From Terriglobia bacterium (lineage in GTDB: Bacteria > Acidobacteriota > Terriglobia > JAJPHL01 > JAPKYU01), in assembly GCA_965223005.1 (NCBI GenBank), contig CBDCVK010000005.1, forward strand, positions 32,001 through 96,000: 64,000 bases of DNA, written 5' to 3'. The notes below the pieces were generated by a model. The model worked only from the letters and a program-made list of their open reading frames with translations. It did not search any database and was not told the DNA's origin. The translations under genes were made by a program, and so were the position numbers. Of this stretch, positions 4,795 through 6,511 are shown one piece after another; within the stretch, counting starts at the first letter, position 1, and the number at the start of each line of letters is the position of its first letter.

Positions 4795-5610
4795 ATGGTT
4801 CAAGTTCCTTTCATAAAGGCACACGGCTGCGGCAACGATTTCCTGATCGTGAGTGAAGATCCCGACCGGATGGCGCCGCTGGATGGCTTTGTGCGCCGTA
4901 TCTGCGACCGCCATTGCGGCGTGGGCGCCGACGGACTCTATTTGCTGTCGGGTGCCTCGGGGGATGCTGAGGCCGAAATCCACCTCTATAACTGCGACGG
5001 CAGCCCCGCCGAATTGTCGGGTAACGGCACGCGTTGCGTGGCCGCCGTTCTGGTGGCCGAGGGACGGGCCGCCGACCCGGCGCGGCTCCGCATCCGCACC
5101 GGAGCGGGGCTCAAGGAACTGCGGTTACTGGACCGCGACGACAATCGGTTCCGCTTTGAAATGCGTCTCGGGGCAACCAGCGTTTCCCCTGGTCCGGAGG
5201 AGACGCTGGCCGTGGGGCTCGGGAACCCTCACTGTGTGGCGTTTGTGGAACGCTTCGGCTTCGACTGGGAGGCGCGCGGCCGCGCGCTGGAACGTCATCC
5301 GCAGTTTCCCGATGGCTCCAACGTGGAGTTCGTACGCGTGATCGAGTCGCACCGTGTGGAAGCGCGCTTCTGGGAACGCGGCGCCGGCCACACGCTATCT
5401 TCGGGCACCGGCGCGGCAGCAGCCGCAGTGGCTGCTATCCACGCCGGGCGCGCCCGCTCGCCAGCGACGGTTTCGACCGAAGGCGGCGACCTGGAGGTGC
5501 GCTGGGAACCTGAAACGGACGTCTCCCTAACAGGCCCTGCGGAAATTGTCTGCCGTGGAGAGTTTTATTGGGAACCCAGCTCGTCTGGGACGCTGGGCGG
5601 CCGGGCTTGA
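4795..5610 (+). CDS. dapF: Diaminopimelate epimerase family protein (both catalytic Cys replaced by Ser); start may be 4783
   Basis: KAHGCGNDF, DRHCGVGADG, GNPH, NVEF, WERGAG motifs; SGNGTRC and SSGTG at the catalytic positions. Confidence 0.85.
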   Translation: MVQVPFIKAHGCGNDFLIVSEDPDRMAPLDGFVRRICDRHCGVGADGLYLLSGASGDAEAEIHLYNCDGSPAELSGNGTRCVAAVLVAEGRAADPARLRIRTGAGLKELRLLDRDDNRFRFEMRLGATSVSPGPEETLAVGLGNPHCVAFVERFGFDWEARGRALERHPQFPDGSNVEFVRVIESHRVEARFWERGAGHTLSSGTGAAAAAVAAIHAGRARSPATVSTEGGDLEVRWEPETDVSLTGPAEIVCRGEFYWEPSSSGTLGGRA

Positions 5611-5656
5611 ACCCGCAAGCCGGGCGGAGGCATGGCCGTTTGCGCCAGTCCAGCCC

Positions 5657-6148
5657 CTAGCGCGCGTACTTCTCGTCTATGGTCTTCTTGATCTCGGGGA
5701 TCGGCATCCCCTGGTTCTGCAGTTGTTGCGCTTCCAGCGCAATCACGCGGCACAGTATTCAAGTCTCACCGTGCCTGTCCACAAAGCAATCCAAGTTATT
5801 GCCGTGTCCGGGATTGATATAGCAGCCGCAGTAGCAGGGCATCCGCTCCAGCAATCGCGGATTGTTGCGGGCCACCTCGTAGGACTTACGGATCATCGGG
5901 TCGGCGAATTGCTCGGGCGGCAGCGCCACGGGGCGGGGCCGTCGGGGAACGGCCGGCAGAATCACCTTCGCGCTCAGACTGCTCTTTGCCTTAGCCTGCG
6001 GCTTGGCTGGCGCAGACGCCGCAGGCGGCCGCAAGGATCGAACGGCCAGGTAGCTCCCAGCACCCACCAGCAGTGCCACAGCCGCCACAGCCGAAGTGAT
6101 CCATCGCCGTGAGGCGCCAGGGCCGGAACGAGCTTTCTTCTGTGCCAA
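5657..6148 (-). CDS. PCYCGC-motif membrane-anchored protein, probable selenoprotein (UGA at 5759-5761 read as Sec, giving UxxC)
   Basis: GGAGG RBS + TTG start; TM helix; PCYCGC...GH.NNLDCF..HGET-UGA-ILCRVIALEAQQLQNQGMPIPEIKKTIDEKYAR-TAG; the post-UGA part matches the normal family C-terminus. Confidence 0.82.
5726..5742 (-). promoter_or_regulatory. Putative bacterial SECIS hairpin
   Basis: Minus strand TTGCGCT-GGA-AGCGCAA perfect stem with G-containing loop, starting 16 nt downstream of the in-frame UGA. Confidence 0.7.
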
Positions 6149-6174
6149 AATCAAGTCCTCCCGAAACGCGCCGG

Positions 6175-6318
6175 CTACTGCTTGTTCATCTTTCTCTCCA
6201 CGATGAACAGAAACCCGAATACACCGAACAACAGGATGGTCCCCACCAGGCACACCAGGGTCAGGCCGTCCAGAAACAGAAAACTCACAGACAATGCAGG
6301 GCAACTAAGCGACAGCAA
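6175..6318 (-). CDS. 47-aa single-pass membrane protein (below the ORF-track cutoff)
   Basis: AGGAGGTG RBS, TTG start, MLSLSCPALSVSFLFLDGLTLVCLVGTILLFGVFGFLFIVERKMNKQ; TATACT -10-like box upstream. Confidence 0.65.
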   Translation of the reverse strand: MLSLSCPALSVSFLFLDGLTLVCLVGTILLFGVFGFLFIVERKMNKQ

Positions 6319-6511
6319 TCACACCTCCTCTGGTTCAGTTACCCAGTATAACAGCACGCCCCCGCCGGGGGAACCCGACCGGGCGATTCTGCCCTTCGCT
6401 TTTGGATTCTGCGATTGAGCTGCAGAAGATTCAGTTACACAGACCAGTTACATAGAGAAGACCCGCCGGATGTCCTGATGAGCTTGCGGACCCGTGCCAC
6501 GAAGGCTGCGG

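Follow-up and report, generated by a model that had tools for sequence, protein, structure and literature searches.

An open reading frame on the minus strand of the 64,000-nt stretch of Terriglobia DNA analyzed here (the window) was called with translation table 11 at 5759..6304. It ends in ...DRHGET at an in-frame TGA (5761-5759), and beyond this TGA there are 33 further codons before a TAG (5659-5657). This raises the question of whether the UGA is a stop codon or is read as selenocysteine (Sec) and, in the latter case, what kind of protein results. The initial annotation had argued for a hidden selenoprotein, noting the HGET-TGA stop, a frame that stays open to the TAG and a stem that begins 16 nt 3' of the UGA, and all of these coordinates were confirmed on the minus strand. 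The read-through tail is U-ILCRVIALEAQQLQNQGMPIPEIKKTIDEKYAR, followed by TAG. The gene starts at a TTG (6148-6146, minus strand), and database homologues have the same start residue. The positions of the features are collected in Table 1.

The neighboring genes in the window are murB, a PfkB kinase gene, dapF, a DUF5777 gene, an EamA transporter gene and a gene for a TrbI-like protein (a weak, sub-threshold match). A scan for promoters and terminators at both ends of the gene returned nothing useful. Directly upstream of the selenoprotein gene lies a 47-residue hydrophobic ORF, MLSLSCPALSVSFLFLDGLTLVCLVGTILLFGVFGFLFIVERKMNKQ (6175-6318, minus strand), which had no match in Pfam; its peptide is conserved in a locus of the same genus (L031), where it is in frame with the selenoprotein ORF.

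Table 1. Features of the selenoprotein locus, in window coordinates
Feature	Position	Strand	Basis or remark
Selenoprotein CDS	5657..6148	minus	Translation with TGA=U; 163 residues, Sec = residue 130
Shine-Dalgarno-like GGGAGGA	6156..6162	minus	Read from sequence; 7 nt upstream of TTG
N-terminal hydrophobic helix (residues 15-35), predicted signal-anchor after K/R-rich stretch	6044..6106	minus	AlphaFold2
PCYCGC/CYCXC domain (residues ~70-163)	5660..5941	minus	All-helical model, pLDDT >90
C105-Y-C107-G-C109	5822..5836	minus	Invariant in alignment A1; loop after helices 84-95 and 97-101
H126-G-E-T-U130-I-L-C133	5750..5773	minus	Sec codon UGA 5761-5759, just before helix 131-145
SECIS-type hairpin UUGCGCU-GGA-AGCGCAA	5726..5742	minus	16 nt after UGA; RNAfold and covariation
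Extended lower pairs around hairpin	5719..5748	minus	Predicted; minimum-free-energy fold

Decoding of the in-frame UGA

We propose that SelB and Sec-tRNA(Sec) would decode the UGA at 5761-5759 as Sec, and that the hairpin beginning 16 nt further 3' would direct them to it. The genome contains all four of the genes selA, selB, selC and selD that the initial annotation had named, each above its family cut-off (selA, 551 bits; selB, 341 bits; selD, 357 bits; tRNA-Sec, 78.5 bits, anticodon tca). The selD gene (G000:C10:916629-917552, L001) is itself a selenoprotein gene, with an in-frame TGA in ...KASGUASK.... TGA also serves as a normal stop in this genome: the convergent dapF, a full DAP_epimerase match, ends in TGA at 5608-5610. 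Genome-wide recoding of TGA was ruled out because dapF and many homologues terminate in this codon.

The UGA had been placed on the first Cys of a CxxC motif, and in all Cys-form homologues examined a Cys stands opposite it. Among 41 related genomes, 18 contained the family, with 19 matches, nine of them with one in-frame TGA and ten with Cys; in 19 of 19, the TGA or the Cys codon falls in the same column of H-x3-[C/U]-x2-C. Across 401 genomes of the phylum, 92 had a family match, giving 102 matches in all, a tally that takes in one Cys-form match from an unpublished genome (G063). One TGA was found in 18 of these 102 matches (a hand count of the table), and U occupied the H-x3-[C/U]-x2-C column in 18 of 18. 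The motif was present at 77 of 80 loci on named species-representative contigs (16 Sec and 61 Cys). Because both the genome collection and the named contigs derive from one set of species, the two collections are not independent, and related genomes have a history in common. The Sec site is the first position of UxxC, as reviews give for the CYCXC family.

Automatic gene calls in the public databases end at the UGA codon. This is what would be seen if the UGA were a real stop, or else a nonsense mutation or a sequencing error, with a 129-residue product and a downstream frame that is a relic. Truncation by gene callers had been foreseen, and 12 of 34 database homologues are indeed 125-131 aa long, covering 79% of the read-through product; the ...HGET C-terminus was found in all six of the short homologues that were fetched. 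Nevertheless, a true stop appears extremely improbable, since TGA is kept in the same column in 25 Sec-form sequences, the window's own included, and at 16 more loci. The frame downstream of the UGA is open and conserved in the Sec forms, and over the 24 codons that follow the UGA the window differs from the same-genus locus L031 by five synonymous and two non-synonymous changes (read by eye). The stem of the hairpin downstream shows covariation (see below), which likewise speaks against a relic.

A sequencing error or a strain-specific nonsense mutation is further contradicted by the retention of the TGA in three other genomes of the genus. Two further sequencing runs, of unrecorded type and from different studies, contained the region: one was identical throughout and is possibly the run from which the window itself came, and the other gave a contig with strain variants. 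Contigs from RNA libraries also extend across the UGA codon, one at 5599-5802 (identical) and one, a strain variant, at 5552-6328. Among the differences listed for the contigs of the other run and of the RNA libraries, none falls at 5759-5761, with 23 more differences outside that list, and this too argues against a true stop. One variant, at 5750, changes TGC to TGT in C133 and is synonymous. The RNA libraries are two 'sponge metagenome' metatranscriptomes whose contigs hold parts of window 5500-6400, and transcription is not thereby proven.

The hairpin 3' of the UGA codon

The hairpin follows a 16-nt spacer (5758-5743) and consists of TTGCGCT (5742-5736), a GGA loop (5735-5733) and AGCGCAA (5732-5726), which together form a 7-bp stem. 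It was recovered when 86 nt around the site were folded with RNAfold, the check that had been proposed for it; this fold had a free energy of -36.1 kcal/mol, as compared to a shuffle mean of -23.3 +/- 3.2 (z -3.96), and none of 200 shuffles was as stable. For the 48 nt after the codon, the mean fold was -16.9 kcal/mol in the Sec forms (n=25) versus -8.3 in the Cys forms (n=10), and in the second set, from the named contigs, it was -12.0 versus -8.7; a fold comparable to that of the Sec forms was missing from the Cys forms. One Cys form (L030) encodes the identical peptide IALEAQ, but the stem is broken by codon choice. A synonymous-codon control sampled codons uniformly, which understates stability in a GC-rich genome, and for this reason we relied on the comparison of Sec with Cys forms and on covariation.

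The SECIS-like hairpin first described from the window alone proved to be conserved among Sec forms, with compensatory changes in its stem. Eighteen distinct Sec forms in the same register as the window were aligned. Helix columns 20-26 and 30-36 were 86.5% paired in this alignment, and the five inner pairs had no unpaired cell among 90 (18 of 18 Sec forms). Compensatory changes were present at pair 21-35 (UA 14, CG 4) and at pair 22-34 (GC 9, AU 7, UA 2), neither of which had an unpaired cell. The covariation score of 0.297 was reached by none of 500 shuffles, and slid controls scored at most 0.149. Of the 18 Sec forms, 10 had no pairing at the loop-closing position and 7 had none at the outermost one; thus, the real element is small, with a 5-bp stem and a 5-nt loop. 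The conserved loop reads U-G-G-A-N, with G27 and G28 invariant in the 18 forms.

Two other subfamilies carry different hairpins, (A/G)UCGCG-CGUGA-CGCGAU and CAAGGAG-GKU-CUCCUUG, located a few bases earlier, and each of these has its own compensatory change. A second predicted hairpin in the window, with 9 bp and the UGA in its loop (5775-5749, minus strand), was rejected, as its arms are lost in L031 (read by eye).

Family, domain and relatives

The read-through product matched Pfam PF13798 (PCYCGC) with 67.7 bits against a cut-off of 25, and the NCBIfam equivalog model NF041379 (OS_HP4_CYCXC, "CYCXC family (seleno)protein") with 107 bits, where the cut-off is 90. A table in a 2022 review lists "Hypothetical protein OS_HP4 ... 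UxxC" (PMC9312934), and two reviews give the OS_HP4/CYCXC family with UxxC and one Sec. The OS_HP names were defined in a 2007 paper on Olavius symbionts (PMC1976440); "OS_HP4" is absent from its main text. Therefore, the Sec form has already been published and is part of an annotation library, as the initial annotation had allowed. The gene is almost certainly a genuine bacterial selenoprotein gene and an ordinary member of the catalogued CYCXC/PCYCGC family. The finding is correct, yet this selenoprotein family is already known. The expectation that its function is uncharacterized was borne out, as the literature searched on PCYCGC, OS_HP4, CYCXC and PF13798 yielded two reviews, a lipoproteome paper and unrelated papers but no functional study. 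For annotation, the outcome is a routine correction that replaces the 129-residue fragment by a 163-residue selenoprotein, a call for which the NCBI family model already provides. What is of scientific interest here is the family, which is widespread (592 loci or more among species-representative genomes), conserved and, in many lineages, worth the cost of Sec, and not the window copy.

The AlphaFold2 model, built with alignment A1 (32 sequences), had a mean pLDDT of 82.6, with low confidence in the linker. Helices were predicted at residues 15-35 (the anchor), 84-95, 97-101, 119-122, 126-129, 131-145 and 150-161. The linker between the membrane anchor and the helical domain (~90 residues) is rich in Pro, Ala and Lys. 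Homologues with signal peptides or lipoboxes were found, and a Parageobacillus PCYCGC member is a lipoprotein according to one report (PMC13068155), which suggests that the PCYCGC domain is extracytoplasmic. The sequence S-R-R-W (residues 13-16; 6100-6112, minus strand), common to the closest homologues, precedes the hydrophobic helix and is twin-arginine-like. Twin-arginine export was rejected: there was no match to a Tat-signal family, and the RR is missing from more distant members.

The invariant positions in A1 are Y90, C105, Y106, C107, C109, H115, C121, H126, U/C130, C133 and I153, among which eight Cys, His and Sec residues form the pattern C-Y-C-x-C, H, C, H-x3-U-x2-C. CYCxC was present in all 111 distinct sequences, where this motif was part of the selection pattern. 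H115 and C121, which lay outside the selection pattern, were invariant in 111 of 111. The H-x3-[C/U] spacing was kept in 109 of the 111.

When the model was used in a VIA-align wide search, the top match was a designed zinc dimer (Z 6.0). The best natural structural match was CcmH of Pseudomonas aeruginosa (2hl7_A; Z 5.1, rmsd 4.2, 67 of 82 residues, model residues 70-163), and a model of the fused form described below matched CcmH on its first domain (Z 3.9), with both CcmH scores falling inside the tool's quoted noise range for helical bundles. Foldseek placed E. coli CcmH at rank 10, not significantly, and against the PDB it gave no match at E <= 0.001 with either the window-protein model or the fused-form model. 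The A1 profile found nothing among PDB chains at E up to 10, nor did a protein atlas yield a usable match to a naturally occurring Cys-form homologue.

The genome's own CcmH (G000:C3:110408-110734; L061:1378-1989, minus strand; PF03918, 71 bits) is encoded directly after ccmF and contains ...LLCQCGCGQHLQGCNMHPC..., with the pattern L-C-Q-C-G-C..H..C..H.C, that is, CxCGC followed by His and Cys. Most CcmH proteins of the class have C-x-C-[GS]-C and then further Cys and His; the textbook CcmH has a CxxC motif. Profile comparison of PCYCGC with the class CcmH by hhalign gave a probability of 61% (P 8e-5, 62 columns), domain-only alignments gave 37-46%, and deeper profiles (111 versus 23 sequences) gave 58% (P 1e-4). 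Overall, P was about 1e-4 to 4e-4 over 56-64 columns, as compared to reversed controls with probabilities of at most 0.5% and P of 0.1-0.4. In these alignments CYCGC fell on CQCGC, the C-terminal G-x-s-x-x-(E/Q)-I...Y-(G/A) helix was also aligned, and the UxxC stretch was handled as an insertion relative to CcmH.

The link to CcmH did not show in single-profile searches. Pfam CcmH had no match in the 32 family members at E up to 10, and a genome-wide search with PF03918 returned the ccmF-linked gene as its sole match. A domain HMM run against the 37,365 six-frame ORFs of the genome found only itself, the next hit being at E 0.31, so that the link to CcmH is one of profile-profile and fold evidence. 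No ccmF or other ccm gene is present among the window neighbors. On balance, we lean slightly toward a distant kinship of the PCYCGC domain with CcmH.

Gene neighborhoods in relatives vary by subfamily, and the window's own gives no functional hint. Long forms of ~320-390 residues (L069-L078) occur in two families of the phylum, and all ten that were fetched are lipoproteins with a complete N-terminal PCYCPC domain, a CXXCH middle domain and a degenerate second PCYCGC-like copy. The middle domain has an invariant C-S-x-C-H and a conserved Met, and its sub-threshold matches were to dihaem cytochrome c (4 of 6) and Cytochrome_CBB3 (3 of 6). The fused-form model had a pLDDT of 77.8, and the best matches of its middle domain were the dihaem cytochromes c 3u99_A (Z 5.5) and 2fwt_A (Z 5.2), scores that lie within the tool's noise range for helical bundles. 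This fusion suggests that the haem may feed electrons to the cysteine site. Near the long forms, a SurA-like PPIase gene was found at 7 of the 10 loci and an mfd or HD/OB-fold gene at several.

In the subfamily with the CGUGA loop, a hybrid histidine kinase gene comes next after the Sec-form gene, on the same strand, at 7 of 10 loci (L160-L162, L164-L167); the kinases have HisKA, HATPase_c and receiver domains, often with PAS. Another locus (L056; G293:C1:2542000-2559000) contains three near-identical tandem cassettes, each with a beta-propeller gene, a weak 6-bladed (DUF5128) match, and then a Sec-form PCYCGC gene. A Cys-form gene (L036:1303-1821) is flanked on one side by a gene for a CusB/HlyD-type membrane-fusion protein and on the other by one for an AcrB-type RND pump, all on the same strand.

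Candidate functions and comparison with known systems

As a working proposal, held with some reserve, the domain may be a CcmH-derived, periplasm-facing selenol/thiol redox module. The selenolate of U130, positioned just before helix 131-145, would attack disulfides or oxidants, and C133 would resolve U130 as a selenylsulfide. The module might then pass electrons to, or accept them from, c-type cytochromes or further partners in the periplasm, or report the redox state to signaling partners, while a structural or switch metal would be bound by the CxCxC/His residues. However, the two invariant His and six Cys/Sec residues fit two Cys3His metal sites equally well.

That arrangement would suit a module whose main task is to bind metal, whether to deliver, buffer or sense it (Zn, Cu(I) or some other soft metal), which we consider nearly as likely as the redox function. 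In its terms, C105/C107/C109/H115 and C121/H126/U130/C133 would be putative Cys3His-type sites, with the selenolate as a high-affinity ligand. The invariance of H115 and C121 and the nearly constant H-x3-[C/U] spacing are in keeping with such sites. ZAS anti-sigma factors have the zinc motif H-x3-C-x2-C, and the pattern seen here equals it; nevertheless, the family had no match to a metal-binding Pfam model, zf-HC2 included, at E up to 10. The Cys form between the CusB/HlyD-type and AcrB-type pump genes also points to metals, as does the Parageobacillus lipoprotein, which adjoins an Fe3+-binding protein (PMC13068155), but these metal-related neighborhoods are single cases. Several predicted UxxC metal-binding selenoproteins appear in the review tables. 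In contrast, the cytochrome c fusions point to electron transfer. Redox catalysis is the more usual setting for Sec/Cys pairing at the first residue of UxxC, which favors the redox module over metal binding.

A disulfide-stabilized, saposin-like helical module in which the six Cys/Sec residues form three structural bridges, with no catalytic chemistry, would agree with the even number of Cys/Sec residues, the extracytoplasmic location, the small helical bundle and the weak SapB_1 matches that 9 of the 32 members gave, with a best E of 0.0043, but it is very unlikely, because costly Sec insertion gains nothing for a structural cysteine, the two invariant His would be unexplained, and the SapB_1 matches are far below threshold and confined to a minority of members.

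Returning to the redox module, a bolder version of it, which we regard as speculative, is that PCYCGC/CYCXC represents an unrecognized offshoot of the CcmH lineage, a Cys3His-type (seleno)cysteine redox switch with c-type cytochrome partners. Such a switch would be fused to cytochrome c in some lineages and in others may report the periplasmic redox state to a co-transcribed hybrid histidine kinase. If this were true, it would provide the first function for a widespread orphan family. The analysis offers three concrete hypotheses for the family: CcmH kinship, cytochrome c domain fusions and hybrid histidine kinase operons. The leads to CcmH, cytochrome c and the kinase are new as judged by the literature searched, and we present them as hypotheses only.

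Several known systems bear comparison with this locus. CcmH (PF03918) is likewise a membrane-anchored, periplasm-facing small helical domain with a Cys motif after its first helices, and the Terriglobia-type CcmH of the same genome shares the CxCGC. CcmH acts as the thiol-disulfide oxidoreductase in System I of cytochrome c maturation. The window gene differs in lying outside a ccm operon, and its protein in carrying an additional H-x3-U-x2-C segment and lacking a C-terminal membrane helix. Sco-cytochrome c fusion proteins exist and, similar to them, the long forms join a periplasmic Cys-motif domain to a monohaem cytochrome c domain. The fold and motif of the Cys domain are different from those of Sco, and the window protein is without a cytochrome domain.

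The bacterial SECIS of the E. coli fdhF type is a hairpin located within the reading frame, directly 3' of the UGA, and has G residues in a small apical loop. The element described here is similar in its location within the coding sequence 3' of the UGA and in its apical-loop G residues, ~23-26 nt from the UGA. It differs in its short stem (5-7 bp), which has no evident bulged U, and in that at least three unrelated stems are found according to subfamily, at offsets of +12, +15 and +17. The closest comparison is with the CYCXC family itself (NF041379/PF13798), with which the window protein shares the CYCxC, the H-x3-[U/C]-x2-C with Sec first, a similar length and the N-terminal anchor, and from which it differs in nothing essential.
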